A stretch of 64,000 nt of DNA, taken from NCBI GenBank assembly GCA_964187785.1, contig OZ076409.1, forward strand, positions 15,564,001 through 15,628,000, written 5' to 3'. The notes below the pieces were generated by a model, which saw only the letters and a list, made by a program, of their open reading frames with translations, was not told where the DNA came from and did not search any database. Source of the DNA: Amphiscolops sp. MND2022 (taxonomy: Eukaryota). Made by a program: the position numbers and the translations under genes. Positions 21,467 to 46,500 of this stretch are shown here, one piece after another. The first letter of the stretch is position 1. Each line of letters opens with the position of its first letter.

Positions 21467-22990
21467 CTCATACACACTTGTTGCCCAGGCGGTCTGGTTT
21501 CTTCGTCACTCGGCTCGACGTTCTTTTTTTTCCCATTTGATCGACACACCACTTTCACCGTGACTAGCACTCGTCACTTCTCTTTCCTCGTCTTTCTTTT
21601 GTTGTTCATTTGTTTCCTCAGGTTGTGATACCATTTCGGTTTTGTGCATATTTACATCTTCTTGATTGTCGCTACAATCTTCTTGTTGCGTGTCTTGATC
21701 ATCTGATTCTTCAGGGTTTATATATGGTGCCACATCGCTCCACTTGGGTACTTTCCCCATTTCCTGCTTTTGTTGGCTGATTTTTGTTTTTGTTCGTTTG
21801 GCCACTTTCTTTGCTTTTGGCACATTTCCGTTCTCCTTGTTGGGCTTCGTTCCGCTGCTGCATTGAGGTTCGTCTTCATTTGGCGTTTCTCGTCTTAGCC
21901 ACGCTACATCTCTTTTTGAGTAGGTTCTCTCTTTTCCTGTTTTGGGGAGGATTGTTATTGTATGCCCCGACTGCCCTTCTACGGCACCTTTGACTTTTTT
22001 AAATGCTCCCTCGAGCTTGGTGCCTCTCATCCTTTCGCGTACCAAGATGGTCGAATCTGTTTCACTGAAATCCTCTGGATCAATTTCTATCAACGGGTCT
22101 TTGTCTAAAACACATTTTTCAACCATCACTGATTTTAGTGTATTCGGTTTTCGCCCTGTTTGTCCTTCAAAAGCTGATTTTCCATCCGCCACTTTTTCTG
22201 TCCCCAAAGCAAATAAAATGTTTGAGATTGAAAATTGATAAAGTTTAATGATTGAGATTGATAAAATTTTGAGATGAAATTCAATCCCTTTTTCCGACAT
22301 AGGTTTTGGCATGTGGCCATCCCGAATTATTATCTACCGATACGAGTAAATACTTATTTCGTTTATGCGCATTTTGAAAGGGCCCCGAAAATCGATTGAA
22401 ATTTCTTCATTTGACTCTTTTGCTTCCGGTAACTTTCCAAACTCTTTTTGCGTTTTCAAACAATTTAGGTTCTTACCTGTTTTTTGGCATTCTGAACAGA
22501 TTTGGGCTTTCTCTACAATTTCCCTGTGGATTTTCGGCCACCAAATGTCCGAGGCCTCTCGCAGCATAGTGTCCCTCCCGGCGTGTCCAAAGTGAATCGC
22601 TCTCAATAAATTTTCTCGCATATCCTTCGGGATAACTAGACGGTTGTCCATAAATAGTAAACCCTTTTCGTTGACGCTGAATGAGGGAAATTTTTCCCTC
22701 CAAGGAGGTGGAAGACGCGAAATAACTGTAGTGTTTTTTTCTTTAACCAAGCGAATAACTTTTTGAATTACTTTATCGTTTTCATAGTTTGCTTGAATAT
22801 ACACTTGGCTTATTTTAGAATTTGTCAAAATGCTATCATCTGCCATTTTAAGAACTTGCTTATAATGACCAACTTGTTTGCTTTTCTCTACTCGTGTGCA
22901 ACGGCGCGTGAAGTTTCAACACTTCCCTTTTTGATCCCTTTGCTTAATTGCGATTTTGCTGCGTTCTTATTGGTTCGCTTATTTTAGCCA
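21467..22990 (-). mobile_element. Second truncated Ty3/Gypsy pol remnant (related family)
   Basis: IHFGHAGRDTMLREASDIWWPKIHREIVEKAQICSEC; the tail DSTILVRERMRGTKLEGAFKK is paralogous to DSAILVRERTRGSKLEGAYKK in ORF 18621-19589. Integrase core deleted. Confidence 0.85.
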
Positions 22991-26560: not shown

Positions 26561-26649
26561 GTACTCGGTATTTATTTTTAACATTTTTTACCATTTGTGT
26601 TAAAAACGGAGTGTTAATAACAGTTAATTATGGCAATGTTAATCAACAG

Positions 26650-28125
26650 TGTCGCGACCACAGAGATGCGATGGGTCCGAAGGGCACCAATGAGAAGACA
26701 AACAACAACTGCTATAAAACACTAAACTTAAAAGACTCATTTGTAAATCATGTAACTTGTTTGTTTGTAGACCATTTGTCAATAGTCAGGGTAATTAACT
26801 CATTTCATCTGATAAAACTTGCGTCTTATGTATTTTCTTTGTTTCTGAGATGCCTTAATGATGAACTTAGTCATTGTGATAATGTGGTTATAGTGATATA
26901 GCTCATTTTGAAATGTACAGTGCAAATGATATACGTCATTATACGTTTCGAGTAATGACGAGTATACGTCAATATACGCTTTTGAGCATTTTTCATAACT
27001 TCAGGTATACGTCAGTATGCGGTTCGAGCAGTATCGAATACTCGTCACTATGCGTTTTTCTCAATTAGTCTACTATACGTCACTCTGCGTTTCAAGGAGT
27101 AACGTATATGCGGCATTATGCGTTTTTCGCAGGACTTGCTAAATAACTCTAGCACGTGTTATAATGTTATCTAGAAGCTATTCCAATCGCAATTGCAGGC
27201 CATTTTAAGAGATCCCCAGGGTTCATTAGTTTCTTTTCCCAATCATACTTTTATGATGTCATGTAAATGTGCTATTTTTATAATATAACGTCATCTGACG
27301 TAATCCTACTTTTGTCTCGATTTCATTCAATGACTCCCATAAAAAGGAGTGTCATGTTTTTGGATATTTTGTTTTCGAGGTTGCAATTACAGGAATTCAT
27401 TAAGAATCCAACCTTCATCAAGTGCAGTTACTTTCTCAAATAACTGTAAAACTTTGATATCGCCACTGTAAAACTTCAGCTTTGCTTCTATTGTGGGATA
27501 TAAGACTAATTCAAATTCTTCCCCAAAAGCCAGAAAACATTTTCACTTGAGAATAACATGGGAAATAAAAGAAGCCGAAGGTCTAGAAGACTTGAGACAC
27601 CGTCCCCAGACAGAGAAGTGGAGGTAACACAAATAGAAACCCCTAAAACAGGTAATGAAGCTTTAATTGATCTTAGTAATGTTGCCCAAGGAAATTTAGG
27701 TGAAAATAGCTGTGAAAACCAGTTAACCGAACCTAGTCAAATAAGCAATGAGATGCAAGTTTGGACCCAAATCATGGAACAAAAGAACAACGATATGATT
27801 GAAAAGATGAGAGAAGAAATGGAAAACAAACTTGAAGCGATTCTAAAGGAAATAAAGTCCAATAAGAGTGCATCCACAGTAACTAATCCTAGGTCGGATA
27901 TAAACGAAATGCGAGAAAGCCAACCTTCGGGATCCAAATGGGATAGATCTATAGGAGTTCATGCATCTAATAACGAAAACTCTGATTCCGAGAACGACGA
28001 CTATCCTCTTAGAGCATCTAAAATGAAGGACTTGAAACATCCTGCTAAACCCTTCTTTGAAACTGAAACAGACTTAGACCAAATAGAGCTTTCAAATGAA
28101 GAATCCGAACAAGAGGATTATCACA
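26650..28125 (+). repeat. 5' LTR (1476 bp)
   Basis: tgtcgcgacc...gattatcaca, near-identical to 40918-42900 apart from an insertion in the latter. Confidence 0.95.
26930..27125 (+). repeat. CpG-rich ~32-bp minisatellite in the LTR; related arrays at ~35615-35795 and ~38945-39125
   Basis: Recurrent ta(c/t)(a/g/t)cg(t/g)ca(c/g/t)tatgcg(g/t) at roughly 32-bp spacing, same orientation at all loci. Confidence 0.8.
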
Positions 28126-29231
28126 TGGTGACAGGAGCCAACCGACAACTCCATAGACAAAGCTCCCAGAAACTAAACGACACAGTAGGATCCCACGCAG
28201 ACCACAATTTGTCAAATTCGACAGTAAAACCACTTGACCCAGTTAACCAAATTGCTTTAGCAACAGAAAAACTGGCGAACAAAAACCCTTCACAATCCCT
28301 TTTTCACCCAAAAAATACTCTAACATTCAATGGAAAAAACGAGAAATTTGAATACTTCGAAGACTTATTCCACACGACACTTCGAATGCAACCAAACCTA
28401 ACAGAAGACATGAAGATTAACCATTTTCACGCCCATCTCAGGGGTTTGGCACGTAAGACATTCAAGAACATACAACGAACCCCAACCACGACTTTAGAAG
28501 ACATACTTAAAGTCTTCAGACGAAAATACGTAAAACCGGAATTCAGTGCATCAGCAAAGCACAGATTCAACAGACTCTCATTTGACCCAGAAAATCAGAA
28601 ACTCCCAGATTTTCTAGAAGAACTCCAGGAGAGTGCTGAAAAAGCATTTGGGGAAAACGCCCACCAAATGATAGAGAATTTACTCTATGCTAAAATGCCT
28701 CCCCATCTTAAAAAGTCAATTAATCAAGCCTACCTTGAGAATGGCACATATGATCAAATAGTCAAACATCTCGAAAGAGAGATGGAACTCAACGAACATC
28801 TAGAGGCAGACGAACATCTCGTCAAAACCCAAATGACCGCCACGAAAAAAGAACAAAACACTGAAAAAACCAATAAGAAACAAAATGATAAATCCAAAAA
28901 ACAGACTCCAAAAACGGTACCCGATAAAACCCTCAAGGACGATCAATGCCGGTACTGTAAAGAGGCAGGCCACATGATGGCTGACTGTCCCAAATTGGCC
29001 AGAAGACGCATACTGGAGGAAGACCCAGAGGCTGACAAATGCCAAAACTGCAATACACCGGGACACGATGAAGAAAATTGCTGCTTTGGTGCAAACATGG
29101 AAAATCGATCGCCCAAATGGCTTCTAACAGAAGCCCAGAAAGATGTCATTGAAAATTATAAACAAGCCAAAAAACCAATAAAACCAAAAATAGAACGACA
29201 ACAACAATCCTCTTCGAAGGATTTAAACTAG
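27558..29231 (+). CDS. gag: Gag polyprotein (557 aa), initiating inside the 5' LTR
   Basis: Capsid-like region FNGKNEKFEYFEDLF...; zinc knuckles CRYCKEAGHMMADC and CQNCNTPGHDEENC. Confidence 0.9.
   Translation: MGNKRSRRSRRLETPSPDREVEVTQIETPKTGNEALIDLSNVAQGNLGENSCENQLTEPSQISNEMQVWTQIMEQKNNDMIEKMREEMENKLEAILKEIKSNKSASTVTNPRSDINEMRESQPSGSKWDRSIGVHASNNENSDSENDDYPLRASKMKDLKHPAKPFFETETDLDQIELSNEESEQEDYHMVTGANRQLHRQSSQKLNDTVGSHADHNLSNSTVKPLDPVNQIALATEKLANKNPSQSLFHPKNTLTFNGKNEKFEYFEDLFHTTLRMQPNLTEDMKINHFHAHLRGLARKTFKNIQRTPTTTLEDILKVFRRKYVKPEFSASAKHRFNRLSFDPENQKLPDFLEELQESAEKAFGENAHQMIENLLYAKMPPHLKKSINQAYLENGTYDQIVKHLEREMELNEHLEADEHLVKTQMTATKKEQNTEKTNKKQNDKSKKQTPKTVPDKTLKDDQCRYCKEAGHMMADCPKLARRRILEEDPEADKCQNCNTPGHDEENCCFGANMENRSPKWLLTEAQKDVIENYKQAKKPIKPKIERQQQSSSKDLN
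28126..28140 (+). promoter_or_regulatory. Primer binding site (tRNA not identified)
   Basis: tggtgacaggagcc immediately follows the LTR-terminal CA; TGG is complementary to the tRNA CCA end. Confidence 0.7.
29222..29228 (+). promoter_or_regulatory. -1 ribosomal frameshift slippery heptamer T TTA AAC at the gag/pol junction
   Basis: X XXY YYZ pattern in the gag frame directly before the gag TAG; the -1 frame is open from there into pol. Confidence 0.8.
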
Positions 29232-32200
29232 AAACGCCACGCCTTACAAATACAAAAGAAGAACCGTCGAAGCCACATGACGACTGGCAGCGTCAAGTGG
29301 ATTCTATAAGCATCCAACTCAAACAACTGACGACTGAACCCGACTCACCTTCAACTCCACCACAAACTCCCGAACAACACTTCCCCCAGGAATCTCTCTA
29401 CGAACTCCTGAGCAACGCTCCAGACAATTATTTTACAAACCCCCATCAACCACATCACCCCAATACGGACGTAACACCAACAATTCACCACAACACAATC
29501 ACAAATACTCATGAAACGACAAAGTCTTCTTGCAATGAACCCAAACAACCCCTTTTAGACGATGATATAACTAACCACATACAGTTCGACAAGGAACGTA
29601 ATTTGTCGTTCCTGCCGATCTCAACCTCTCTAACACTGAAACGGAAACGCCATATGTACTATATGCCAATGGACTTCGAAAAACTCACACTGGACGGACT
29701 CATCGACACAGGAGCCCTGACAAGTGCAATTTCCGAGCAAGACTTGAATAAAATCAAATTACTTGCCAACAAATCAATAAAAGACACTGGTCCTCCCCCA
29801 AATTTTCAAATAATGGTGGCCAATGGACAACTCGAAGTTCCAATAGGCACAGTACTTTTAGAATTTGAAGTAGCCGATTTCATGTTACGAGAAAATTTCA
29901 TTATCATGAAAAACCTACCGAACCCCCTAATAGGATTGTGTTTCCTTCGCAGGAACAATGCAATTTTCGATGTCACCCAAGGCATCTTAACATTCCCCTA
30001 TTTGTCAATGCAACTAAAACCCGATACACAAACAACAATACGACAAGCAACACCATTGTTTGCAGAAAACACCTATACTTTACAACCAGGAGAAACACTC
30101 GCCATAGCAAGCAAAATGCCCCATTTGATGGATCACAACGCAACTGGAATCCTTACTCCATCACAACAGTTTGAAAATCACGATAGCATTTTTATCACAG
30201 CATCACTCAGTACCGTGAATAATAACTCTCTTGGGTACCAAATCATCAACTTCTCTGAATTACCCTACACGATAATATGCGACACGCATTTAGCGGATTT
30301 CAAGATATTAACTCCAGAACAAATCAAACATATACAACCAGTGGACCCAGCCTTGTTATCTTTCATGATACAACATGAAGAAACAACAGAAGTCTGCATA
30401 AATGAACTCTTCAAAGTACCACAGCAAAATTCTGAGCAGGAAACATACTGGTTCCCTACTCCTGAAGAACCAGGTGATCCTAACACATACACACCAATCC
30501 AACAACGCATATACAAGGAGCTCCTCGAATTACAGGAACTGGAGAAACTCAACCCAAATGCCAGTGAAACAGCCAGGAATACGTTCCTTTCAAATTTCGA
30601 CTGGTCCGACACAACGCTAGGCCAAGACGAACGACAAGAAATTGAAGAAATCCTGGTTGAATTCCACGACATTTTTGCCAGACATCGTTTTGACATAGGC
30701 ATAAACCGCGAATTCAAAGTCAAACTAACACCAAATGACGACAGACCTGCTTACAGTCAAAGTCTCCCAACCCCTATCAATCTCAAAGATGACATCACTG
30801 TAGAACTTGCTCTTCTACATAAATATGGAATCATAACTACTCTACCATTTTCAAAATACGCTAGTCCAATTTTCGCCCAACGAAAACCCAATGGTCGCCT
30901 TAGACTTTTAGTTGATCTCAGAAAAATCAACAACTTAATCACCGAAGATTATACCAACAACAATCACCCGGTAAGCACTTTATCCGATGCAGCTCAACAC
31001 ATGGCAGGGAAAAAGCTTTTCTGCAAATTGGATTGCTCTCAGGCTCACCACTGCCTCCAGATGGCGGACTACCAATCAATTCAAATGCTCGCATTTAATT
31101 TTGCAAGCAGAACGTTTGCTTACCGACGTCTTGCTCAGGGTCTCAGCAGATCACTCTCAGCATTTTCAAGCTTTATGAGAGAGTACCTGGACAAAGCAAT
31201 TGAAGCAGACCAATGCGCCCAATATGTCGATGACATCGGTATAGCAGCAAATGACACAAAACAATTGTGTACAAATATCAAAACCGTTTTTGAATGCATA
31301 CGCAACGCAGGATTAAAACTCTCCATGTCAAAATGCCATTTTGGAGTCAAACAAGTCGACTTTTTGGGTCGCACAATCACACCCGATGGGGTTGCCCCTC
31401 AAGCCGACAAAGTAAAAGACTTTCTCTCAAAACTTCGTTTTCCCAAATCAAAAAAGGCATTACAGAGGTACATAGGTTTTTAAACTATTACCGAAACTAC
31501 ATTCCACGCCTCTCAGAACGATTATCTCCGTTCTTCAAACTCCTCAAAGAAACGTCCAAATTTTATGTACCAACAAATTTGGTGGAAGATTTTACTAACT
31601 TAAACAAAATTCTTGAAAACTCTTGCCAATTAGCTCTGAAACAACCGATGAAGAACAAGCAACTCATAGTCATGTCCGACGCAAGCTTCACAGCCGCTGG
31701 TTACGCAATCATGATAGAAGACGACCCGAACCAAAAACTACAATCCAAACGCAAAACATATGCCCCAGTAGCGTTTGGCTCAAAAACTTCCAACCCAACA
31801 CAAACAAAAATGTCAATCTATGCGAAAGAATTTCTTTCCATATATTTTGCATTTGTTGAATTGGGTCACCTTATGTGGGGTAGTACCTTCCCAGTTATTG
31901 TCTTCACTGACAATCGTTCAGTAACCCGATTTTTTCAAGCGAAAATGATTCCCCCAGCACTCTGGAATGCCTGCGATTACGTCCTACAATACAATTTTGT
32001 AATCGCCCATGTTGCCGGTTCAATGAACACCGCCGCTGACTTCCTATCTAGAACGGAAGTTAACCCAATCGAAAAACTCGAAATGACTATCCGTAATGAT
32101 ATTCGCACAAAAGCAATCGAAGTGAATATCCAATCATCAGGCATAGTTGAAGAAGAACAAATCCATGTCCTACCTGATGAGGAAGTTGATGAAAATGACC

Positions 32201-34119
32201 TCTGGCAAGAAAAACAAAATGTACGAAACCAAGCCCAAACCGAAACCCACAATGACCCAGAAAATGAGGTCGCTGAACTACAACATTTCCATAAACCCAC
32301 ATCAGGACTGATCTCAATATCATCAGGGTACTTCAAGGACAATGCAAGAATCCGTCTCGAACAGAACAATGACGTAGTCCTTAGAAACCTCCGAGCTAAA
32401 ATTGAAGGTAACCCTTTCGACGAAAACGAATTACAATCTGATTACCGATACCAGCATTATTTACAAAACATAACGCGAATAGAAATCAAACAGGAAGTTC
32501 TCACACGCAAATACTACACAGACACAGGAACCATATCTCACTACCAAATTCTTTTACCAATCCAACTTCTAGAAGAATTTCCACAGGCCTTGCACGGTCA
32601 TAATTCAAATCATCTAGGAATCACCAAGATGATTCAAGAAGCACGCCAAAAATATTACTACCCATGTATGGCTAAATACATCAAAAAATGGGTCAGTAAC
32701 TGCCAAGTTTGTATTCAAACAAAACGCATTAACAATGATCTCCTCCGAACCGAACTTCTTAATTGCCCAGAATGGGATCTTGGCCCAGAAGACCTTCTGC
32801 AGATGGATATTTTGCCAAACCTCCCCCCAAGTGGAGGCTATGATCATATCATCACAGCAATTGATGTCTTCTCAAGATACTTGTTTGCCTATCCTGTAAC
32901 TCGCATAACTGCAACAACGGTTTCAAGAGTTATCATGGATATACTATGCAAGCACACTTACCTTCCAACAACGATAATTACAGATCTAGGCACTCAATTC
33001 AACGCGCAAGTAACGCATGAGGTTGCAGCAGTGCTAGGTATTGAACTTAAACACGCAACAATGAAACATGCCCAAACGATAGGACTCCTCGAGAGAACCC
33101 ATGCCTCAGTCAAAACACACCTAAAAGCTGCAACAGGTGAATTCAGGAACAACTGGCATAAGTACCTACCATTGGCAGTCGTAAACCACAACACAACATA
33201 CCATGCATCACTTGGTTGTGAACCTTCACGAGTTTTCCTTGGTAGAATACCACACAATATCCTAGACTACAAACTTGGGTATAACCCTAATCCACGATAC
33301 CAGCCACAAGCCGATATAGCGGAAGAAATTCAAAAGCGAATGAAAATTCTACTCGATCAAACAAAGAAAAACATCATGCAATCCTATCTCAAACATAAAG
33401 CCTATTATGATCGAAAAGCAAAGGCAGCTCCGCTCGAAACAACGGACTACTGCTATATTCTCAACCCAAAGGCAGATACACAAGCGACAAAAATACCATT
33501 CAGAGAATTCAGATGGTGTGGACCATATAAAGTCGAAAAAGTACTCCCTAACAATAATTACATTGTCCGGAGACTCGGAACTAACAAAACGCAACTACTA
33601 CATAGGATTCGCCTGCGGAAATTCACTACGCAAGCCCCATTATCAGATAATTTCGTTCGTGAAACGGATTGGCAGAAAGATGATCAAATGACTATTGCAA
33701 ATGATGACCTATACGCTCAATCATGGAACACAAACTTTGGCTCTAACCCGTTTGAAGAAAGCCCTTCAGAATTCTCACAGGACACTGAAGATGCTGAATA
33801 TACTCCGATTCAAATACCTGATGATAACCACCCACCCTCCCCAGGATCTTCAAAAAATATTGGGGGGAGCCCAGTGGAACAGACCACTGAACCAAATGAC
33901 AATCATGAAAATGAAATTCCACAACACATCAGTGAAGATGATGAAGATAACCAAAAAACTCAAAAAGAATCAAATAACTCACCAGTTAATGATATCCAAA
34001 AAACCCCAGAAAATTCCCAAAATGCCCCATTACAAGAAGAACCCATAAATACCCGTGGTGAAAAGTACAACTTACGTCCTAATCCCAACCCAAACTACTC
34101 TGACACATATAGATATTAA
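29222..34119 (+). CDS. pol: Pol polyprotein (protease, RT, RNase H, integrase) with one frameshift at ~31480
   Basis: LIDTGA (PR); YVDD (RT); MSDASF..KEFL..FTDNR..AADFLSR (RNase H); H..H..CQVC, LQMDIL..ITDLG..LLER (IN DDE); GPY motif. ORFs 29297-31483 and 31294-34119 join at RYIGF/LNYY, where one T is missing from a T-run. Confidence 0.93.
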
Positions 34120-34361: not shown

Positions 34362-37300
34362 TCAGATTAGATTAGGCTTCGGATTAGATTTCTTTGTCGG
34401 ATCATCATGAGAAGAACCAGAACAACGGCTCACAGAGACATTAATTTTGCCCAAATTTGGATCAGGAGAAGGACTACTGTTCACGCTACTGGTCCGACTC
34501 ACACTTGGGGTAGTAGTAGTTGAAGAAATTGTTGGTTTATCGTGTCGCAAAACTGCTTTCCGGTACCCTGTCTCTAGCTTTCCCAACAATGACGCCCGTC
34601 GCGGCCCACTTCCTTTCAAGAAGTTCCAAACTGAGAATTTCTTGTCCGCTAACAAATCTGTCCCACGACCCAGTAAACGAAAAACCCGGGTAACGGACTT
34701 GGGGTCTCGATAAAGACTGGAGACATGCTGAATGGTCAGATAAGACATTTGAAGACTTTTTACACAAGATTGGAAAATATTTTCGTCAGATTCCAAACCC
34801 GGAATAGGCACAACAAACTCGGTGGGCATTGCAACCAGAGGAGGCAGACATAAACATGAGAGTTTGTAGAACCGAAGCAATTCTGGCCGACATTGAAGTT
34901 CAGGGTGTGAAGAATCAAAATGGACCCAATCTTCATACTCCGGAACATTTTCGACTCGCAGCTTAGTAACAAATGACCGATACTGGCTAACTATTTTTGC
35001 CTTGTCACTAGAAGTAACTAACCCAGTCGAAACAAAGTGCCCAGACAACTTCTCAATGGCGACAATGTAATTCGCTTCAGGCCCATCTAAGATAACGGCA
35101 GGATCAAAAGCTGAAAGACCTCTAATAAGTTTGGACTTGAGGAGCTCATGACCCAATAGCTGCTTACAGTAGGTCTTGCTGAAACATATCGATTGATCCA
35201 CAAACTTGCCAGGTCGCGGCAATTTGCTGGCAAGGACAAGCTTATGAAAATCCTCATTCAATATGTATTCGTCCGGTGTCTTGAAAGGCAAATCCTGCTG
35301 GGATAAGTCCAATTGTAGATAATGATCCCAATCCGAGATACTTCCCAATTTGACATCTGGGAGGATACTTTGTAATTGGCTATAAACAAATACAGCGAAT
35401 TGATTGAATGTACGGAACCCGCCCGCTACATCTTTCTGTACTTCAGAGAATGCCGAGGTGTCTGAAACACATCAAGTGGATTACCATGCATTACTGTGAA
35501 TGAATGAGAAAAGTTGAAAACAAGTAGAGATTAGTCACCAGAAAAGACAACAATATATATAACGTGTAGAAAATTCATTTTGGAAGTCAACGCTTGAACC
35601 AAAAATTTGAAATTATACGTCATTGTGCGGATCGAGGTGTGTCGACTATTCGTCACTATGCGGATCGAGCCGTGACGACTACTCGTCACCATGCGGAATC
35701 AGCAAGAGTAGTTGACGAAGCCTGCCAGTCGCTTACATTAAATTAATATGCGTCACTACGCGGAACAAGCTGTGATGACTATGCGTCATTATGCGTAAAA
35801 CCAATTATACCTGAAAAAGACCAACTGAAGACGAAATGCCAATGACAACGTAACGAAATATCAAACCAACATGTGTATTTAAGTGAAAAGAATGCTAACA
35901 GTGGTCGAGGACGCATCTTATGATGAAAAGGCGCGCCAGATACGCCGTATCCAGCCGAAAGCACTCGTCTAAGGTGTTTAGCTAGAACAAGAGAGGAGAC
36001 ATGTAGGAGAAAGATTAAAGATATGTAAACCTGAGTTGGTGAAAAAACTTATCAAAGCAATATAACCTCACGCATATGGAAACGATATGGTGGGAGACGA
36101 GACACTCGGAGCAAATGATCGCACACATGATCCCAATTGAGAGAAAGGGCTTCTATAAGTGCGGAAGCTTCTTCAAGGGAGTACTCCGAACGAAGAACAC
36201 TCTGAAAGAAAACAAAGAGTAAACGGGGACACCGAAAAATGTCAACAACCAATATGATATACTAAACTACCTTGTGCAAGAGGGGAATCTTTCTCAGCCA
36301 CTCGCGATCCAAGGCTGTCCTCAACTTCATTAACAGAAAGTCAATGATTGTCCGAAAATCATGGCGCTCTATGATTTGCGCGGTGGGCATCGCAAGACTT
36401 TTTTCAAATTCCTCAATCCCGAAAGTGCATATGACGGTGGGCTGCTGTTTCCCTGGGAGACAAGTAGCCAAACACTCGCTCAACTTCTCTCCAATGTCAA
36501 TGAGAGAGATGCATGTAGGAACTGTGTCAAATAAGCTCAAGAACGAAGACACAAGACTCAGGATTTTCCGTGGCAAGAGCATACCTCGAGGGGCACTGCC
36601 CAGGCAAACTCGGTGCAAAACATTTTCTGACCAAAAATTGAGGATAATAAAGGTCGCAGTTGTAGTATGTTGAAGGGCCAATGAGTAATGTGCGGAAGAA
36701 GAAATTGCAGCTACACAGTATCCCATTAATTCACGAAACATGTACACGAGGATTCCCTGTAACACAAAGAACTGGAGATAACATCGTGTTCAAAATATAA
36801 AGAAACAGAGACATTTTTCCTCGAAAAAGATCGAAAACAGCTAGTTGTACTAAAAACATGTACTTAAAGACAGAATACTTACAAAGAGTCGTTGTGGGCT
36901 CCAGTGTTGAGTGCACAGATGATTACCGGATCCTAATCGAGCAAGTTCATTATAGATCCCAGTCAAACTATCGACGTGTCCTCCATACCGAAGGCCGAAC
37001 TCCAATATACTGATTTGGGACAAAATCTTTTCGGTGGGATTCATTGTGGCACTAAAGTCAGGAACAGTGTTCTGTCCCACGAGTGGTCGACATACGTCCA
37101 ACTGTGGTGTTATCGGATAAGTGTCCTTGGCCTTTTTCTTAGCCTCTTGAAGCACGATACCTAAAATCTCGCGTTCTTCTCTATCGTACAGTGCCATTCC
37201 AAGGACCTCCATCCTGATTCTGTGTTCCTTGACAAGATGACCCTCGGAACGATAGTGAGACAATAGTTCGAGTGTACCACGGCTCATTAAGGAGAGTTCT

Positions 37301-38545
37301 ACTTTGCACACCCTACACCACCATTTATACGGGTTTTTGTCCTTATCGATAGGCCCGGTGGCAGAAAATTTCAAAACGGGGTGCTTTTTGAGCATTGTCC
37401 CGGTGAGTGATTATTTCGGTCTTCTCCGCTTTCCACCGAGAACGGGGTTGTCGACTCTAGGAGTGCTGAGACTCAAAATTGGGGGAACGAAAGTCCTTGC
37501 ATCATCTTGACTAGACGTCATCATGTGTGGCACTTCAGACTCATCAATTATAGTTAGTCTCAATGGTTGACTCACCTCAGCTTCCTCTCCCATTACGTAC
37601 TCTTGTGGAATTCGTTCAAGAACTCTAGTTAGGGCAAGAATCTCCCGTCTGGTAATGTTGAAGCTGGATGTTCCTGTATTCCCATCGTTCTCTTGTACTT
37701 CCATGGTGGATGTATTTAGAGGAATATCCTGTCCAATCATTGTCGAAATTCCCGCATTAGGGGTAATGGACGAAGTCCGTGGTAGAGGTGCTTCATTGGG
37801 TCCTGAAACGAACTGGCTAGCTTGGGGGGAAAAGGAATTCTTCAAGAATCTCCCGACTTATGTCAACTAACGAGCTGTCCATGACATGTGGAATGCTGGT
37901 GACTGAGCTTGGCCCCACCTCCTTAGTACACGGCTCTGCACTATCAGTTTCCTGGGTAATCCCTGAAGGAGAACGTTCAGAATGTGCCAGCTCTTGTTCG
38001 ACGACAACCTCAATCCCTTCGTCAATCTGAAGGGGTGCGATATTGGGCGACTCTAACTCGACGGGGGTTTTTGGAACTTTGGGAGAAGAAGATTGCAGTG
38101 GAGTATAAATTTTTACAGGAGACTTGATTGGGGAACATCCAACAAATTCTAGTTCGACTGAAACAATTGATTTATAAATGAAATAAAATGAACAAATTGA
38201 TCGAAAACAGTGTCCGTTTCGAGCTTCCTAAAACCGGACGCGGGGACAGGAAACGAATAAAGAAGCGGAAATTGTTTGAAATTAGGAACGGAAACGTTTC
38301 GAGAAATTCGGAATTTGATCTACATAAAATGTGGGTCATTTTCACCTAAAGGCCTGGCCAGCCTTGCAAAATTCAAACCTTTCAAACAAAACTTGAACCA
38401 ACTTTCAAAGTCAAAATTAGTTGAACCTACCGGGATCTGACCAGAAAGAGGGGTTATAGTCTCTGCCTCCGTATCGATAGTGGGTGGCTTGCCCTTTTCT
38501 CGTTCTCTGTTTTCCTGACTGATTTCTCCCCTGCTGTGGATCCAT
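34362..38545 (-). pseudogene. Antisense 6-exon gene inside the LTR element: BED/C2H2-like finger plus degenerate hAT-transposase-like body (~1070 codons, three lesions)
   Basis: Exons 38545-38431, 38157-36883, 36756-36271, 36201-36067, 35981-35867 and 35461-34362 have GT-AG sites and consistent phases. Finger WWCRVCKVELSLMSRGTLELLSHYRSEGH; HYSLALQHTT sits at the expected position of hAT FSLxxDESTD; C-terminal GLSAFDP...QYRSF...ELLRFYKLSCLCLP. Lesions: frameshift ~37830, TAA 37411-37413, TAG ~35896. Confidence 0.65.
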
Positions 38546-39938
38546 TTCCTCCAGACAAGATGGAAAGTAATGCGGATTGTAAAAAGACAGAATGGCAAAT
38601 GACAAAATTAAATGGAATCAAAGGAGCAAGGTAATGTAAAGAACAATGGAAGTTGAACGGTATAACCAACCTGTGGACGGAAACTTCAAACTCGAATACT
38701 ATACAAACTGAAAACTGATTTACTTTATAATGTAACAAAGAAGGCGTGGCGTAATTTAAACGAGGCAGAAAAGCAAATGAAACAAGTTTGTGCAAATGTG
38801 CAAAATGAATACTGAAATTTGATTGGCTAATTAAATGTCAATCACGTCTGCCAGCGTGATTGATAGACTCACTGTGGATCTAGATGCGAGAATACATGCA
38901 AATGTATTGACGTCAAACAAATTGGAATGATTTCATACTCGAGAGTACGCGGCAGTATGCGGATCGTCCAATGACGAGCATACGGCAGTATACAAAGCTG
39001 AAGCGAAGACTATGCGGCAGTATGCGGATCGTCCAATGACGAGTATGCGGCAGTATGCGGAATTGCCAGCTGAAGACTATGCGGCAGTGTGCGGATCGAG
39101 TGGCGACGCATACTCGGCATCCTGCGGTTTTCGCTGTACGTTTTCAGAGAGGTGGATTAATGCTACCAGCAACCAGAATTTGACAAATAGAGTAGTATTA
39201 CGTAAGATGATGAAGAATCTGCTTGCCCTCAATGACAAACACGTGATATTATTGGTGTTTTAATACACATGGCTAGTGTTCTTTCGAGCTTAATATGCTA
39301 ATAGATGTTGACGATACCTACTTAAACCTTCTGAATGGGCATACCATTAAAACTGAAGCTTATTTGTCGGATTATCAGTCCAATTGCATTTTTCAAAAAT
39401 GCAGGACTTGGGATTAATGTATAATTTTCCTCAGAAATAAACTTTTACTTAGAGGAAGCATTGGTTTAAAATAAGTCATGAACACAAAATTTCTCTGAAT
39501 TTCTCCTTTAAAACTAGTCATGCAGGGTAAAATAAAATTGATTTTGAATTGTCCTGATGAATATTTCATGAAAATATTTCTTAGTTAGTCATTTTGATGT
39601 TAGGATAGATTTGTTTATATATCGTTAGAATATTGGAAAAACGCTGTAAGCTTTGATGATGAGTGATGATCGGTTTGAGTGTCAAGAGAAACACCTTTTA
39701 TGGAAATTGTTTACAACACATTGTGGATGAAATCCCGAGAACCGAAACTATACAGAACCCTTATAAGGGTGACGAGGGAAATAAAAGATGACAAGCAATT
39801 TCTTCGCGGGTTTTCTCCCAAAGACTGAATAAGGAGGAAGTTCCACCACCATATGGTCTCCATCAACCTGCGATTCAGTTGCTTCAAATTTAAAACTTTG
39901 TCTTCGATTATATACAATCATCACGCACGATCTAGAAA

Positions 39939-40961
39939 ATGAACCCCCTGCAATTTAGCCTCGACGAAGATTTAGGCTACTCGCCTATCTCACCCGACGT
40001 GATTGATATTTCTAGTGAATCCGGGGAAGAATTCACTGTAGAACCGGGTAATACAGCACAACTTGACGAAAAGTTCAGAATTGACACAAGGGGATCAAAC
40101 ATTATGACTGCGTTCATGGACTCTGCAACTGCTTCATTGTTTCCTCCCTCCATTAGTGTCGGTTATCAAGAAACTATCGACACTGCCGGGTCCTACATCG
40201 AAAGGGAAATTATGGAACTACTGGAAGAAAATCCCCTTTCCTCCCCTGTGTCTATCCAGTCTTTTGTGGACTCAGAGTTTGAAGAGGTAGATATGCCCCC
40301 GGAATCGCCTGAAACTGAAGCTAATGTACGAGTCAATAGCTACGGTCGGCCTGTGGCAGCGATACTACCCACTCCAAGGGCTGCGGTTCAGCAGCAAGCA
40401 GGAACTATTAGACCTGTTCCGACTTACCCCCCTAATTTCGTGCAGGGATCATCCAACTTTCATCAGACCCAAGCAGACAACACAAATGCGCAGGAAGCTT
40501 CTAATCTCCCAAGTTACGAACCAGAGGAAGTACCATACCCAATCACAAGCGACATCACGCCAATGGTGATACACCTGCCTCCCAGGAATATGGGAATTGT
40601 TCCTATCAATTTTAATGGGCACATTCATCAAAACGTTCAATTCGGATTTCCATTCGATATACTGCACAGCACCAATGTTCTCTTGATGCCAGTAAATGAA
40701 AGGCAAAATTTCAGGCTGTTCCCAACAGTCATGCCCAATGTTGCTGGATTTTGCGACTGGTGTGGTCGCACCTTTGACCAAGTCGCGTTGGAGACATTAG
40801 GAGACTACCTTGGTGCAACCGCTTACAATGAAGAGACGGTGAGGGATCGCGGAGTCCGGTCCAGAGCCTTCATTGATGGATTCGAAGCCGCGTTGTTTAT
40901 CTTCAAAAATGCAGGACTGTCGCGACCACAGAGATGCGATGGGTCCGGAGTGCACCAATGA
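39939..40961 (+). CDS. Extra sense ORF (340 aa) of unknown function ending inside the 3' LTR
   Basis: Uninterrupted ATG ORF with an acidic/Pro-rich N-terminus and C-terminal FCDWCGRTF; no obvious signal peptide or TM helix; overlaps the LTR start at 40918. Confidence 0.6.
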   Translation: MNPLQFSLDEDLGYSPISPDVIDISSESGEEFTVEPGNTAQLDEKFRIDTRGSNIMTAFMDSATASLFPPSISVGYQETIDTAGSYIEREIMELLEENPLSSPVSIQSFVDSEFEEVDMPPESPETEANVRVNSYGRPVAAILPTPRAAVQQQAGTIRPVPTYPPNFVQGSSNFHQTQADNTNAQEASNLPSYEPEEVPYPITSDITPMVIHLPPRNMGIVPINFNGHIHQNVQFGFPFDILHSTNVLLMPVNERQNFRLFPTVMPNVAGFCDWCGRTFDQVALETLGDYLGATAYNEETVRDRGVRSRAFIDGFEAALFIFKNAGLSRPQRCDGSGVHQ

Positions 40962-42900
40962 GAAGACAAACAACAACTGCTATAAAACACTAAACTTTAA
41001 AGACTCATTTGTAAGTCATGTAACTTGTTTGTTTGTAGACCATTTGTCAATAGTCAGGGTTATTAACATTATTCATCTGATAAAACTTGCGTCTTATGTA
41101 TTTTGTTTGTTTCTGAGATGCCTTAATGATGAACTTAGTCATTGTGATAATGTGGTTATAGTGATATAGCTCATTTTGAAATGTACAGTGCAAATGATTT
41201 ACGTCATTATACGTTTCGAGTAATGACGAGTATACGTCAATATACGCTTTTGAGCATTTTTCATAACTTCAGGTATACGTCAGTATGCGGTTCGAGCAGT
41301 GTCGAATACTCGTCACTATGCGTTTTTAGTCGGCGCCTTTTCCCTTAAGGAAAAAAGCCCGACTCTTACAGTGAGTAGTTTTTTTTTTTGTTTTTTTCAG
41401 TTGACAATCTCACTCTGAGTGGTCCACTTTTCTTACAATTCTGCAATTCTGCGCAGAAGGCAAACTTTACTCCAAAGGGTCCCCCTTTCAGTTTTTACTT
41501 TTTCAAGGAAACATACACAACCGGACGTGCCCAAAGGGTCCCCCCTTTGGATTTTTTTCGGCACTGTGCGACTTTTTTTCGAAAATTTTTGAAATTTATC
41601 AAAGGGTACCCCCTTGCATTTTTTTTGAAATTTTCGGTTTGTAGAAAACGTTGAATGAGCCTGAATGGCCTTTTTTTGAGTTTTTCGGCATTTTGCGACT
41701 TCAAAAATACTTTTTTTTCGAAAAAAAATTTCAAAAATAATTTTTTTGAAAAATTTTTTTTTCCAAATTTTTACAATAGTTGTTCCTTGAATATTTTTGA
41801 GCCTAAGATATGGCGCCGACTTGGGACGTTCCCGTCTTGTTCTCAATTAGTCTACTATACGTCACTCTGCGTTTCAAGGAGTAACGTATATGCGGCATTA
41901 TGCGCAGGACTTGCTAAATAACTCTAGCACGTGTTATAATGTTATCTAGAAGCTATTCCAATCGCAATTGCAGGCCATTTTAAGAGATCCCCAGGGTTCA
42001 TTAGTTTCTTTTCCCAATCATACTTTTATGATGTCATGTAAATGTGCTATTTTTATAATATAACGTCATCTGACGTAATCCTATTTTTGTCTCGATTTCA
42101 TTCAATGACTCCCATAAAAAGGAGTGTCATGTTTTTGGATATTTTGTTTTCGAGGTTGCAATTACAGGAATTCATTAAGATTCCAACCTTCATCAAGTGC
42201 AGTTACTTTCTCAAATAACTGTAAAACTTTGATTTCGCCACTGTAAAACTTCAGCTTTGCTTCTATTGTGGGATATAAGACTAATTCAAATTCTTCCCCA
42301 AAAGCCAGAAAACATTTTCACTTGAGAATAACATGGGAAATAAAAGAAGCCGAAGGTCTAGAAGACTTGAGACACCGTCCCCAGACAGAGAAGTGGAGGT
42401 AACATAAATAGAAACCCCTAAAACAGGTAATGAAGCTTTAATTGATCTTAGTAATGTTGCCCAAGGAAATTTAGGTGAAAGTAGCTCTGAAAACCAGTTA
42501 ACCGAACCTAGTCAAATAAGCAATGAGATGCAAGGTTGGACCCAAATCATGGAACAAAAGAACAACGATAGGATTGAAAAGATGAGAGAAGAAATGGAAA
42601 ACAAACTTGAAGCGATTCTAAAGGAAATAAAGTCCAATAAGAGTGCATCCACAGTAACTAATCCTAGGTCTGATATAAACGAAATGCGAGAAAGCCAACC
42701 TTCGGGATCCAGATGGGATAGATCCATAGGAGTTCATGCATCTAATAACGAAAACTCTGATTCCGAGAACGACGACTATCCTCGTAGAGCATCTAAAATG
42801 AAGGACTTGAAACATCCTGCTAAACCCTTCTTTGAAACTGAAACAGACTTAGACCAAATAGAGCTTTCAAATGAAGAATCCGAACAAGAGGATTATCACA
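40918..42900 (+). repeat. 3' LTR (interrupted by a Helentron-like insertion; its gag copy has a stop at 42405-42407)
   Basis: Matches 26650-28125; the ORF at 42528-42953 is the LTR-borne gag N-terminus. Confidence 0.95.
41328..41840 (+). mobile_element. Non-autonomous Helentron/DINE-1-like element, family A
   Basis: Absent from the 5' LTR; inserted in a T-run with no clear TSD; subterminal inverted repeat agtcggcgcc/ggcgccgact, 5' fold-back ...cccgact, 3' hairpin gggacgttccc, ends tcttgtt. Confidence 0.8.
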
Positions 42901-43578
42901 AACAGTGTTTTTTAACAACAGCCTTGTTATTACCCCAGAATTATTTTAAATAAATGCCCATGTATCGGTCAAATTTTTCACGCCAAAAAATTATGAAAGT
43001 GAAGAAGGTACGCTCGGACCAAATGATTTTTTTTCGAAAAGTCGCACAGTGTCGAAAAAACCGAAATGTCGAAGAGTTTTTTCTTTCCAGTTGCTTTTTC
43101 TCCCAGTGTCAAAAAACTCAAGAAGTAACTCCTCTTAAAATAACTCCTCTTAGTTCGGAAAACGTTTTTTGTCTCCTCTTTTGCAAGCATAAAATGTTTT
43201 TGGTTCAGTGCGAGACTCGAACCCACGCTCTTCTGCTTCTCAGTCCTCAGAAAATCCGGTTTAACCTTTCGGCCAAAACTATTTAAAAAGCCACTACTAT
43301 AGTCGGCTTTTACTTCGTAAGCGTCAACTAAAAAATGTTTTGTTGTTTTTTTCGATCAATTTGAAATTCAGAGACTTGATCCCAGGTTTGAACCTTTTCA
43401 AACAATTTCGAAGTATTTTTTATTTCATGAAAACTTCATTTTTCGCGAGTAAAAAGTGTTTATTGTCGTCTAAAAAATTAGCTGATGGTGTTTTCTTACG
43501 TTCTCCCTGTTTTCACTATTATTCTCAGAGAAATTAAACATTTTTGAGCTCTTTTTATTCTGGAAGTGTCGTTTGCAG

Positions 43579-46500
43579 CGAGTGAAATCCAACTTGCACA
43601 TAACCCTGGCTCTGAGTCCGGCTGGATCCAGCTTCCGGCACAGGTGTCGTATGCATCCCAGCATAGTGAACTGCTGCACCATTGACTGGATAGACGAGTG
43701 GGGTGACGATGCCATGTATACCGTCGCCCAGATGTCTCTGGCTAAACTGGACTTCAGTCAGACCACGGGTGAGTCTATCAGACCTGTGGATGAACGCCAG
43801 TATGATAGACTGGCACCATTAATCAAGGAAACACGTGAATTTCAGTTCATGGAAAAATGATATTCGAACTCCTTCGGAAAAAGTGGAAAAAAGCTCCTAG
43901 AACAAAAAGCACTCTAAATAGTGCCAAAATGTTCAAAAAAGCGCAATTTCGTGCATTTTTAGTCGGCGCTTTATGCTTTTAAAGAAAAATGCCCGACTAT
44001 AGCAGTGACCTTTTTTTTCTTCAGACTACAATCCTCACACTGATCGGTCCACTTTTTAGAAACAATCCTGAAACCACCTAAGGCGCCAAGTCCGGCCAAG
44101 GGGCCAAGGCAAATTTAGTGCAAAGGGTGGCCCCCTTTCATTTTTTACGTTTTCAAGATAACCTAAAAAACCGGACGGGACTAAAGAGTCCCCCCTTTCG
44201 ATTTTTTTCGGCACTGTGCGACTTTTTTTCGATTTTTTTTGTCTCCAAAGGGTCCCTCCTTTCATTTTTTACTTTTTTAACGTAACCTACAAAACCGACC
44301 GAGACTAAAAGGCTCCCCTTTTGATTTTTTTCGGCACTGTGCGATATTTTGCAAAAGAAAAAATTTTTTCGAAAATTTCAAGTTTTTTTCCAAAAAAATG
44401 TTTTGCGCTTTTTGAGCCTTAGATATAGCACCGACTTTAGACGTTCTCATCTTGTTGAATGTTTTCGTGGGTTTCCTTTGCTCAGCTAACAGCAGTTTTC
44501 CTCGCAAGTGTTTGCAAACTACGCTTTCGCCTCTGTGTTTAATTACAGTAGTTTTCAGTTTCGGATAATTCTTGATTAAAATGTGCTATTTTTACGCCAG
44601 TTTTTATACGTTTTGGCTTCTGTACGAATAATCGCTATTAATTTAACCGGTTTGATTCATTACTGAGTATTGTAATGAAATAATAACCCAACCGTTTAAG
44701 ACGAAGTTGCGTAATGTTGAAATTCAATCTCGCAAATTGAATTCTGTTTTCATGCACTTCATCTGTCTAATTACCTTTAATAACCAAACTATCTTCAGCT
44801 ACAAATGTTTTCTTCCTACAACAGGTGGATACCTGAAAGACCCATCGACGTCTTCTCCCAAGCCTGGTTCGAAGCCCGGAACTCCGCAAAGTGCCGAGAA
44901 GGAGTTGAAAGACAGTCTTGCTAATAGCTGCGTGCAGATTTACAAGACTGTCCGAAACTATTCGCAACGCTTCTATTTGCAGCTGAGGAGACACTATTAC
45001 GTAACTCCCAGCACCTACCTCAAACTCATGCGTATCTACCAGAACTTGTACACTGAGAAGTTACAAGAGCTACTCGATAACCGGTGAGCACTTATTTTTG
45101 TACCACACTTTTTAAAGAACAAGACGACCGCTAAGCGCAGGGATATTTTCCGCCCTGTTCCCCTTCACCAACTGAGCCATAGCTATTTTGGGAGGGGGGG
45201 AATAGGATCTAAAGAATAAGATCTAAAATTTAGTGGTTTTAGATCTTATTTCTTTTAGATCTTATTCCCGCCCTGAAATTTTAGATCTTATTCCCTTAAG
45301 ATCTTATTCCCTTTTTGACTTTAGATATTATTCCCGCTGTATGCTATTTTAGTTACTTGACTATTTTAGTTACTAATTGCTATATAAAATAGTCAAGTAT
45401 TCAAAAGGTGGAGATTGTTGAGATTTGGCAAAATTTGTAAAAAAAAATGCGTCACAGATCATGATTTTCCTCCCCCATTTATAAAATGTGGGGTCGGAAA
45501 ATAACAGCAAGCCGGGAAAGGCCCAAGTCGGCGCCATGTCTAAAGTTTAAAAATCCAAAAAAGTCATTAAAAACCTGACCCTAAAGCATTACTTTGGACG
45601 CAAATTTTGTGAAATTTTGGGGAAAAATCGATGGTGTTACACGAGGAATGAAAACGTTATATCCGAACTTTGAAAACGTTATATCCGAGTACTCTTTTGT
45701 CCCGTTGAGTTTCCTAGATGATGTAAAATACGTTGCAAGCTTGTATGCAAGATGAAATTCAAGATGAATACGTTGCAATATGAAAATTGTAAGAAAAGTG
45801 GACCACGCAGAGTGAGATAGTAAGCTGAAAAAAACTACCCATTGTAATAGTCGAGCTTTTTCCTTAAGGGGAAAGGCGCCGACTAAAAAGAGACTTTTTG
45901 ACACTGCTCATTTTTTTTCGAAGCATTTTTTGTTTAGGCGAGAGAGTCTGTAAATTTAGACCATTGAAATTGCTTTGAAAGCCCGATCAGCTCCACTGAA
46001 GGTTGTTACTGAAGGATGATGAAAATGTTACTTCAACATCACTTCGGTTAAGGCTACTTTTCACGAGTCCACTGTTTTATCAGATCGATAAAGTCCCAAA
46101 ATTCTGAAATTCCAGTTTTTCCTTACTAGGAAAAACAGATTGATAAACAACAGCAAAATTGCACTGTCATTTGTATTGAAAGTCAAATGATTTTCCCATT
46201 TCTTTTTGAATACATAACTACGACTGAAATTGCATCAGGGAATATACATGTACCCGGTCCTTAACATGGAATCAGGTGGATGAATATAGGTGGATTGAGT
46301 CAAAATAATTTGCACGATGCTGATTGGTTGTTTCAGAGACCGTTTGAAGAATGGGCTGGAGAAACTGTCGGAGGCGAATTCTTCCGTGGCAGTTCTTCAG
46401 AAGCAGCTTGTCAGTCTGGGACCCGAGATAGAAGAGAAAACCATCGAAACAGAAAAGGTTTTGGTCTTGTTGAAGGTAAGTTTTTGTGCCACCCCTGTTT

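Follow-up and report, generated by a model that had tools for sequence, protein, structure and literature searches.

A conserved, intron-bearing antisense gene in a Ty3/gypsy retrotransposon lineage, possibly a captured hAT transposase

Organization of the element

The window, a stretch of 64,000 nucleotides from contig OZ076409.1 of Amphiscolops sp. MND2022, contains a Ty3/gypsy LTR retrotransposon with TG...CA ends and a 5-bp target-site duplication (TSD). Between its LTRs lie gag and pol in the sense direction, an antisense gene pointing towards them, and a sense accessory frame, ORF3, which precedes the 3' LTR.

26645..26649 (left) and 42901-42905 (right), plus strand: target-site duplication AACAG, 5 bp
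26650..28125, plus strand: 5' LTR, 1476 bp, TG...CA; layout matched in other copies
28126..28139, plus strand: putative primer-binding site (PBS) beginning TGGTGACAGGA, within the gag reading frame
27558..29231, plus strand: gag with zinc knuckle; ATG within the LTR
29162..34119, plus strand: pol, with protease, RT, RNase H and integrase with its C-terminal domain, in Ty3/gypsy order
38546..39938, no strand assigned: divergent intergenic region from the antisense gene to ORF3, a candidate internal promoter
39939..40961, plus strand: ORF3, a sense accessory frame (340 aa) that extends past the PPT site into the 3' LTR
40918..42900, plus strand: 3' LTR, split by an insertion of ~510 bp at 41328-41836

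Pfam recovers gag followed by the PR-RT-RH-IN order in this element, and pol of the window copy is broken across several frames. The 5' LTR includes a repeat motif at ~26911-27122 as well as the first ~189 gag codons. A second element beginning past the 3' LTR was considered and rejected; the gag start found there is part of the LTR. LTR pairs were recovered for 18 of 20 copies, all of them with the same PBS start; the PBS-like TGG start is conserved. The tract preceding the 3' LTR falls within ORF3 and consists of purines only in part. ORF3 has an N-terminal acidic motif and a C-terminal domain with a conserved CxxC; its median dN/dS is 0.18, and a Pfam search with it gave zero matches.

Structure of the antisense gene

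The antisense gene consists of six exons on the minus strand between pol and ORF3.

38545-38431, minus strand: exon 1, ATG at 38545
38158..38430, minus strand: intron 1, in which clade A conserves three non-coding motifs
38157-36883, minus strand: exon 2, with low-complexity N-terminus, basic stretch, zinc finger and helical linker
37414..37431, minus strand: basic stretch KRRRPK directly preceding the finger, a candidate nuclear localisation signal
37237..37317, minus strand: zinc finger C-x2-C-x16-H-x5-H in exon 2
36756-36271, minus strand: exon 3, predicted RNase H-like core
36201-36067, minus strand: exon 4, 135 nt
35981-35900, minus strand: exon 5, 82 nt, strongly conserved
35462..35899, minus strand: intron 5, with a 33-bp CpG-containing array (TRF core 35614-35697)
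35461-34362, minus strand: exon 6, predicted all-helical, with a Ser-rich basic tail

All introns of the window copy have GT..AG ends, and the intron phases are 1, 0, 0, 0 and 1. Across 59 diverged copies, GT or AG is present at 454 of the 472 mapped ends of introns 2-5 (301/312 in clade A and 153/160 in clade B). Some of these ends were located by demanding GT or AG, which is circular; with such ends set aside, the counts are 225/234 in clade A and 113/120 in clade B. For intron 1, the 11 aligned clade A sequences have a GT donor in ten cases, a GC donor in one and an AG acceptor in all 11. The three intron 1 motifs occur in 35, 22 and 30 of 39 clade A copies and in 0/20 clade B copies. The original prediction of six antisense exons with canonical, phase-consistent splice sites is borne out by this retention of splice ends. 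The three lesions that it had counted in the window copy are likewise confirmed: exon 2 has a frameshift near 37820-37860 and a stop at 37413-37411, and the last few codons of exon 6 are altered.

Conservation among copies

We compared the position of the gene among copies chosen in two ways. All 60 loci picked by the gene have it tail to tail (convergent) with integrase, in the same position and orientation, although these loci were taken from top hits only and the sampling therefore favours complete copies. They span three deep groups, and integrase identity falls to about 41-54%. Among copies picked by integrase, 19/20 carry the gene, which is thus present in most family members. The coding sequence is under purifying selection, with a dN/dS of 0.06-0.27 (11 pairs, dS below 0.3); between subfamilies, pS is ~0.8 versus a pN of 0.23-0.42, and the last exon in clade C has a median dN/dS of 0.155 (6 pairs).

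These conservation data already refute the reading of the gene as a nested hAT insertion or neutral passenger, to which we assign a negligible probability. Such a reading could draw on the single gene-less copy among the 20, which is explained by a clean internal deletion, and on the many broken copies, since 32 of the 57 read did not pass the no-break filter. Against it stand the constant position and orientation, the purifying selection and the absence of terminal inverted repeats (TIRs). Among the 25 longest inverted pairs listed per region, none of three copies had a conserved pair around the gene; the sole flanking pair in the window (21 nt, 71% match) has no counterpart among those of the two other copies scanned. 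Among the 60 top-hit loci there was no free-standing non-LTR copy and no donor hAT. The gene is integral rather than nested, as first proposed, and it marks an entire gypsy lineage, deeper than the single family originally envisaged. We regard it as highly probable that the antisense gene, conserved and intron-bearing, is an integral part of a Ty3/gypsy lineage.

The carrier family is very abundant and recently active. In a set of 20 copies other than that of the window, 18 have LTR pairs that are 98.5-99.9% identical and 14 are flanked by exact 5-bp TSDs. The gene is found in such young copies.

Predicted fold and catalytic sites of the protein

The N-terminus encoded by exon 2 is low-complexity and rich in Ser, Pro, Glu and Thr. 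The ligands of the C-x2-C-x16-H-x5-H finger are invariant in the 25/25 copies read, and the finger is present in clade C copies too. Pfam matches it to C2H2 below threshold only (E 0.07-0.11) and leaves zf-BED unmatched; the finger proposed at first was BED/C2H2-like.

The exon 3 model has the predicted order helix, b1, b2, b3, helix, b4, helix, b5 and matches residues 153-264 of Hermes. The exon 6 model matches Hermes residues 371-609, that is, the later insertion domain and the C-terminus, and is of low confidence at the C-terminal end of this range (Hermes 609). When the two models were searched separately, the hAT transposase Hermes was the top or joint top match for each, with modest scores and collinear ranges. 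The predicted RNase H-like core is broken by a helical insertion domain, as in hAT transposases.

Sequence comparisons gave a different result. Pfam searches with the exons and distant homologues (26 plus 20 proteins) returned no family match, PF05699 included, and PDB sequence searches with the protein returned nothing significant. A PF14291 search of the genome gave zero matches, and its controls were likewise silent. The host genome contains many hAT elements; hhalign against profiles of them, which are small and shallow, reached a best probability of 2.2%. A Foldseek search with exon 6 gave no match, none of 4,959 candidates (647-2000 aa) was a longer homologue of a single window exon, and a metagenome contig scan produced 34 pattern matches, 0 of which were confirmed. 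The likeness to a transposase noted earlier is supported by the predicted structures, with Hermes best or joint best for two separately modelled exons, and is not seen in the sequence-profile tests. A hAT origin is predicted from the modelled structure and domain order, not from sequence profiles.

The catalytic triad of Hermes is D180, D248 and E572 (PMC2533014, in part). The segment YSLALQHTT, named in the original prediction as the equivalent of the first catalytic strand, indeed falls on the predicted first strand of the RNase H fold in exon 3. With registers set by secondary structure and by eye, Gln at ~36672-36670 occupies the expected place of the first catalytic Asp, and Asp and Glu are absent from six positions around the end of strand 1 in 25/25 clade A and B copies. 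The second and third sites have no invariant acid, and their residues vary. At the by-eye position of Hermes E572, Glu is found in the window copy, in 9/17 clade A copies and in 0/8 clade B copies; this qualifies the earlier statement that the ER motif is lacking, and the acid is not conserved at this position. The DDE triad is not conserved across copies.

It is very unlikely that the protein is still catalytic or that its ancestor was a different protein with an RNase H fold, for instance a duplicated integrase. Acidic residues do lie near the expected positions in some subfamilies, and integrases rank directly behind Hermes for exon 3. However, none of the three sites keeps an acid in all clades, the exon 6 model matches Hermes alone, and the finger, RNase H core, helical insertion and C-terminus follow the hAT order.

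Repeats in non-coding DNA

Both LTRs contain a 33-bp repeat that is also present in the upstream region and in intron 5, which upholds the claim of a minisatellite shared by gene and LTRs. Each of these places (LTR, upstream region and long intron) has the CpG-containing repeat motif, which differs from clade to clade. The intergenic region contains a CCAAT box at 38826-38822 (minus strand) and a 33/65-bp array at 38942-39098. In the non-coding DNA of the element (4,151 bp), one strand carries the motif TAYRCG, picked post hoc, 32 times; gag-pol (6,563 bp) has 4 occurrences and the flank (47,749 bp) has 21. Repeat words of the clade B intron recur more often in the LTRs of clade B than in those of clade A. 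In clade C, the upstream arrays are weak or absent: 4/7 copies lack an array of period over 15 and retain the gene.

The TAYRCG motif is strongly one-stranded (32 versus 4), and the clade B repeat units are partly self-complementary. Both features would suit a role at the RNA level, in which the protein, in the manner of Rev, binds one-stranded repeats of the long unspliced genomic RNA and serves in its export, packaging or stability; an export factor has been reported for another LTR element, Cer1 (PMC10309623, in part). We consider this role unlikely, given that the protein is predicted to derive from a DNA-binding transposase, that arrays lie in the likely promoter region beside the CCAAT box, and that ORF3 is an alternative candidate for the job.

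The presence of the motif in the LTRs, together with the NLS-like basic stretch, could also indicate that a dead transposase acts at integration, binding cDNA ends or LTR repeats and tethering, importing or targeting the pre-integration complex. Transposases naturally bridge DNA ends and targets, and this favours such a role. Nevertheless, the motif is also found in the intron and upstream region, distant from the ends, and the 14 TSDs, compared by eye, have no obvious common sequence. In addition, the clade A gene reassorts relative to integrase, which is unexpected of a tight partner: the Spearman correlation between the gene tree and the integrase tree, the maximum-likelihood tree being a quick one, is 0.13 within clade A and 0.83 within clade B. 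A function at integration is improbable on this evidence.

A proposed captured transposase as a candidate regulator

We give about an even chance to the reading of the gene as a captured, catalytically dead hAT transposase that is a candidate sequence-specific activator or anti-silencing factor of the element. An ancestral gypsy element would have acquired an intron-bearing hAT, or a hAT-derived host gene, in reverse orientation, and the introns would survive reverse transcription because the spliceosome cannot see them on the genomic RNA. From an internal promoter, a transcript would be made and spliced into an mRNA that encodes a nuclear protein of ~1080 aa. This protein may bind the repeat arrays via its finger and multimerise like hAT transposases; once bound, it would maintain the activity of the LTR and the internal promoter in trans. 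Transposases can switch on their cognate copies, and the DDE triad is lost in regulators that derive from them (bioRxiv 10.64898/2026.08.24.746577, in part). The targets of VANC are tandem repeats, which differ from one related element to the next (PMC5735166, in part).

Several observations count against the regulator reading. The sequence-level comparisons for hAT kinship were all negative. The arrays are weak or absent in clade C although the gene persists. A one-stranded motif suits an RNA signal equally. The gene and integrase trees of clade A are discordant.

The same anatomy would fit a negative or defensive regulator, which damps its own family, excludes rivals, or decoys host repressors or host hAT transposases. 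The regulatory antisense genes of HTLV (PMC11963269, in part) and the many hAT elements in the genome would agree with this. We find it improbable; what selection acts on is the copy of the element, and the great abundance and recent activity of the family fit more simply with a promoting role.

Returning to the activator, the full proposal is that an ancient lineage of gypsy elements turned an entire DNA transposase into a transcription factor for itself, encoded by an ordinary spliced gene concealed on the antisense strand, with a co-evolving protein-repeat anti-silencing circuit; its probability falls a little short of even. If true, it would provide an example of spliceosomal intron turnover within a replicating retroelement. 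A five-intron gene can last long inside such an element. The subfamilies, at 20-95% identity, supply many natural protein/repeat pairs, which suit tests of how transposons evade silencing and how a transposase changes into a transcription factor.

Comparison with known systems

In the predicted protein, a zinc finger is followed by an RNase H core, then by a helical insertion and a C-terminal region, an order like that of Hermes (PDB 8edg, 8sjd, 4d1q, 2bw3). Unlike Hermes, the protein does not conserve the DDE triad, has a long low-complexity N-terminus and shows no detectable sequence similarity; TIRs are absent, and the carrier is a retroelement.

The ZBED family, DREF, DAYSLEEPER and ZNF862 are hAT proteins domesticated by hosts, in which a dead or repurposed transposase retains the finger and is under purifying selection. 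Transposases are usually domesticated by hosts, whereas here a mobile element has apparently domesticated another, and the gene exists in many mobile copies instead of at one fixed locus. HBZ of HTLV-1 is spliced. It is similar in being a nuclear regulator encoded antisense in an LTR element, but is a small bZIP protein driven by the 3' LTR and of unrelated origin (PMC11963269, in part).

The antisense ORFs of plant Ty3/gypsy elements (maize Grande gene23, rice RIRE2 and Retand/TRP28) likewise occupy the interval from pol to the 3' LTR in most copies, tandem arrays lie in the same interval, and a regulatory role has been proposed for the ORFs, as here for the antisense gene (PMC7264820, PMC11963269, both in part). 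The present gene is antisense, lies between pol and the 3' LTR, is present in most copies and is conserved. Grande has its own promoter and a nuclear product, to which a candidate internal promoter and a putatively nuclear protein correspond here. The plant ORFs are of no established origin (PMC7264820, PMC11963269), whereas a full hAT transposase architecture is predicted here. Plant reviews call that origin unknown, and TRP28 bears the Pfam name 'transposase 28' with its function given as unknown (PMC7264820). For one LTR element, the predicted hAT ancestry offers a concrete candidate for the source of the antisense accessory gene. Our gene has five spliceosomal introns, whereas the Retand paper nowhere uses the word 'intron' (PMC7264820).

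The plant mobile domain (PMD) is common to Gypsy and MULE elements, thus to class I and class II, and is linked to silencing; it differs in not being a transposase core, and the flow described for it runs from a host gene into MULE elements rather than from a transposase into a retrotransposon (PMC5418596, in part). Our literature search of titles and the starts of abstracts, with Repbase and subscription journals outside its scope, found no transposase-derived, intron-bearing antisense gene of an LTR element.

VANC of VANDAL and TnpA of Spm are also element-encoded trans factors with fast-changing non-coding repeat targets (PMC5735166, bioRxiv 10.64898/2026.08.24.746577, both in part), and TnpA is itself transposase-derived (bioRxiv 10.64898/2026.08.24.746577, in part). 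A VANC-like clade-specific non-coding repeat is seen here in clades A and B and is weak in clade C. VANC and TnpA belong to plant DNA transposons and their function is shown by experiment (PMC5735166, bioRxiv 10.64898/2026.08.24.746577, both in part), whereas an LTR retrotransposon carries the present gene, its function is a proposed one, and its predicted donor comes from the other element class. The terms 'retrotransposon' and 'LTR' are absent from the main text of bioRxiv 10.64898/2026.08.24.746577. If our reading is true, the antisense gene would represent domestication of a class II gene by a class I element and a VANC-like system within an LTR retrotransposon.

Architecture of the carrier element

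The window houses a Ty3/gypsy LTR retrotransposon with the following features.

26650–28125: 5′ LTR, starting with TG and ending with CA
34362–38545 (−): six-exon antisense gene, between pol and ORF3
39939–40961 (+): ORF3
40918–42900: 3′ LTR, starting with TG and ending with CA, interrupted by an insertion of ~510 bp

The two LTRs are 97–98% identical and are bordered by the 5-bp duplication AACAG. Pfam matches to the gag zinc knuckle, protease, RT, RNase H and integrase follow the gypsy order, and pol of this copy is divided among several reading frames. The carrier belongs to the gypsy superfamily rather than to the hAT elements. Coding sequence overlaps the LTRs at either end: the first ~189 gag codons lie within the LTR and the end of the sense ORF3 overlaps the LTR start, a layout also found in other copies. 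In the window element and loci L101–L140, the LTR is 1.44–1.88 kb long where both ends were found and contains about 185–195 gag codons, and the PBS also lies within gag. Since gag starts inside the LTR, every 3′ or solo LTR holds a gag N-terminal fragment. The insertion in the 3′ LTR (41328–41836) is MITE-like and shows 68% similarity to a nearby repeat (43952–44456).

A second accessory gene, ORF3, is arranged head-to-head with the antisense gene; it has a median dN/dS of 0.18 (32 pairs) and no Pfam match. Its N-terminus carries an acidic 'IDISS'-type motif, also found at the beginning of a clade C sense ORF, and a CxxC domain is conserved in clades A and B (A, to which the window copy belongs, B and C are groups of gypsy elements in this genome). 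Elsewhere in the window, an internally deleted hAT transposase ORF with a PF05699 match occupies 62072–63442 (+); its family has a 610-aa form elsewhere in the genome (L063) and no detectable similarity to the antisense gene. Related dispersed repeats in either orientation are densely nested in 1400–26350, which also has tandem units of 199 and 231 bp and several long A-rich minus-strand ORFs (18621–22915).

Structure and distribution of the antisense gene

The six antisense exons with canonical splice sites described in the original prediction are real. The ends of introns 2–5 read GT or AG in 301/312 cases in clade A (39 copies) and 153/160 in clade B (20 copies); some ends had been placed by searching for these letters themselves, and excluding them gives 225/234 and 113/120, respectively. 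Intron 1 is kept in all 11 aligned clade A sequences, one with a GC donor. Exon lengths are constant between copies, and intron lengths and sequences drift. The three lesions predicted for the window copy were found as three breaks in the gene, and no flanking TIR pair, likewise as predicted, was present in the three copies scanned. Three short non-coding motifs of intron 1 (38158–38430) occur in 35, 22 and 30 of 39 clade A copies; the rest of the intron diverges in clade A, and clade B does not have the motifs in this form. In clade C (L141–L160), intron 2 is at an unchanged place, intron 3 is absent, the N-terminal part has additional introns and intron 5 is missing in at least one copy (L157). 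Intron turnover has occurred inside this element.

The genome searched comprises 1.07 Gb in 1,929 contigs. Exon 6 gave 6,640 first-look candidates, 111 of which were scored, at 65–100% identity. Among loci taken from the top matches, which favours complete copies, the integrase is convergent with the antisense gene within 2 kb in 20/20 picked by exon 6, and the gene is present in 19/20 picked by integrase, as expected if most family members carry it; the remaining locus (L032) has cleanly lost about 4.6 kb internally, at L032:1671–1672, and with it the whole gene. Clades B and C were reached via unnamed database homologues, and gene and integrase are convergent in 20/20 loci of each, likewise taken from the top matches. 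The clade B protein is ~40% identical to the window protein, with ORF3 in 19 loci and one locus internally duplicated; the clade C protein is about 20–24% identical, and the integrase stretch of clade C about 41–54%. Internal duplications affect the 3′ part of the antisense gene and the integrase end in L011 and L081, and part of the gene in L156.

LTR pairs were obtained for 18 of the 20 copies whose LTR regions were examined (98.5–99.9% identity), with exact 5-bp TSDs in 14 of the 20. These near-identical pairs and exact TSDs imply that the gene goes through reverse transcription, introns included; it is an integral, old component of the element. Homologue matches number 285 among 50%-identity representatives. 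The best matches in this genome are only 46% (P0087), 35% (P0154) and 29% (P0250), and such low identities point to the presence of the gene in other genomes, as represented by these homologues and P0232.

Selection and catalytic residues

Of the 57 copies that were read from the latter part of exon 2 through exon 6, 25 are unbroken. Among these, dN/dS is 0.06–0.27 in the 11 pairs with dS <0.3, as purifying selection predicts. Six separate clade C pairs give a median of 0.155 (0.08–0.47) for the last exon; that the gene is a passenger seems highly implausible. Between subfamilies, silent sites have reached saturation (pS about 0.8), and pN is 0.23–0.42. The gene evolves much faster than the integrase, with a median identity of 61% versus 96% within clade A. 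Gene and integrase trees agree on the A/B split and disagree in branching within A (L001–L040), which suggests recombination between pol and the accessory cassette.

The hAT transposase Hermes, the structural reference for the predicted fold, requires D180, D248 and E572 (accessible part of PMC2533014). At the predicted end of strand 1, all six positions lack an acid in 25/25 clade A and B copies; clade C does have acids there, at shifting positions. Near the strand 4 end, clade C carries G-[AGS]-[SP], with varying residues before it, a motif resembling the D-G-A-S of hAT transposases; clades A and B have a hydrophobic residue at the matching position. No invariant acid occurs around the third catalytic site, and all four zinc ligands are invariant. 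The lack of a conserved acid at the examined sites argues strongly for the catalytically dead transposase originally predicted; since the registers were aligned by eye, this is a strong inference rather than a measurement. Residual activity, or another ancestor, is very unlikely.

Repeat arrays and proposed function

In clade A, intron 5, the gene–ORF3 interval and the LTRs all contain a 32–33-bp repeat whose core is of CGCATA type, which bears out the predicted minisatellite common to gene and LTRs. In the window, the density of TAYRCG, a motif picked after inspection of the sequence, is ~17 times higher on one strand of the repeat-bearing non-coding parts than in the flanks. Intron 3 of clade B contains an array of a different kind (38–40 bp), and words from it turn up more often in the LTRs of clade B than in those of clade A; clade C has weak arrays. 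A CCAAT box matching a strict pattern lies upstream of the ATG in 22/39 clade A and 5/20 clade B copies.

In the favoured reading, an ancestral gypsy element would have acquired an intron-bearing hAT gene in reverse orientation, the sole orientation in which introns survive on the genomic RNA, and the captured gene would then have lost its ends and catalysis. An internal promoter would give a spliced antisense mRNA ending tail-to-tail with pol; the two stop codons are 242 bp apart. The protein would bind the family's repeat arrays and keep the element transcribed in trans, a role to which we give an even chance. Tethering of integration by the protein is unlikely, a part in RNA export or packaging equally so, and self-repression or a decoy role is a still slimmer prospect.

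Comparison with known systems

Within the literature covered, which left Repbase, most subscription journals and supplements outside its scope, no paper was found to describe an LTR element with a multi-intron gene derived from a transposase; the accessible parts of PMC6431247, PMC13547354 and PMC5418596 contain no gene of this kind. Plant gypsy elements are known to carry antisense accessory ORFs, whose origin and function are unknown (PMC7264820; likewise the portion available of PMC11963269). Rotifer LTR elements have additional ORFs that encode esterases, exonucleases or env, as far as the available text of PMC5408684 goes. In plant DNA transposons, repeat-targeted anti-silencing and transposase-derived regulators are known, according to the sections available of PMC5735166 and bioRxiv 10.64898/2026.08.24.746577. 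By analogy, the antisense protein might work similarly to a VANC- or TnpA-type factor. The observation of the antisense gene in an LTR element is real, and a plausible reading of it would be categorically new.
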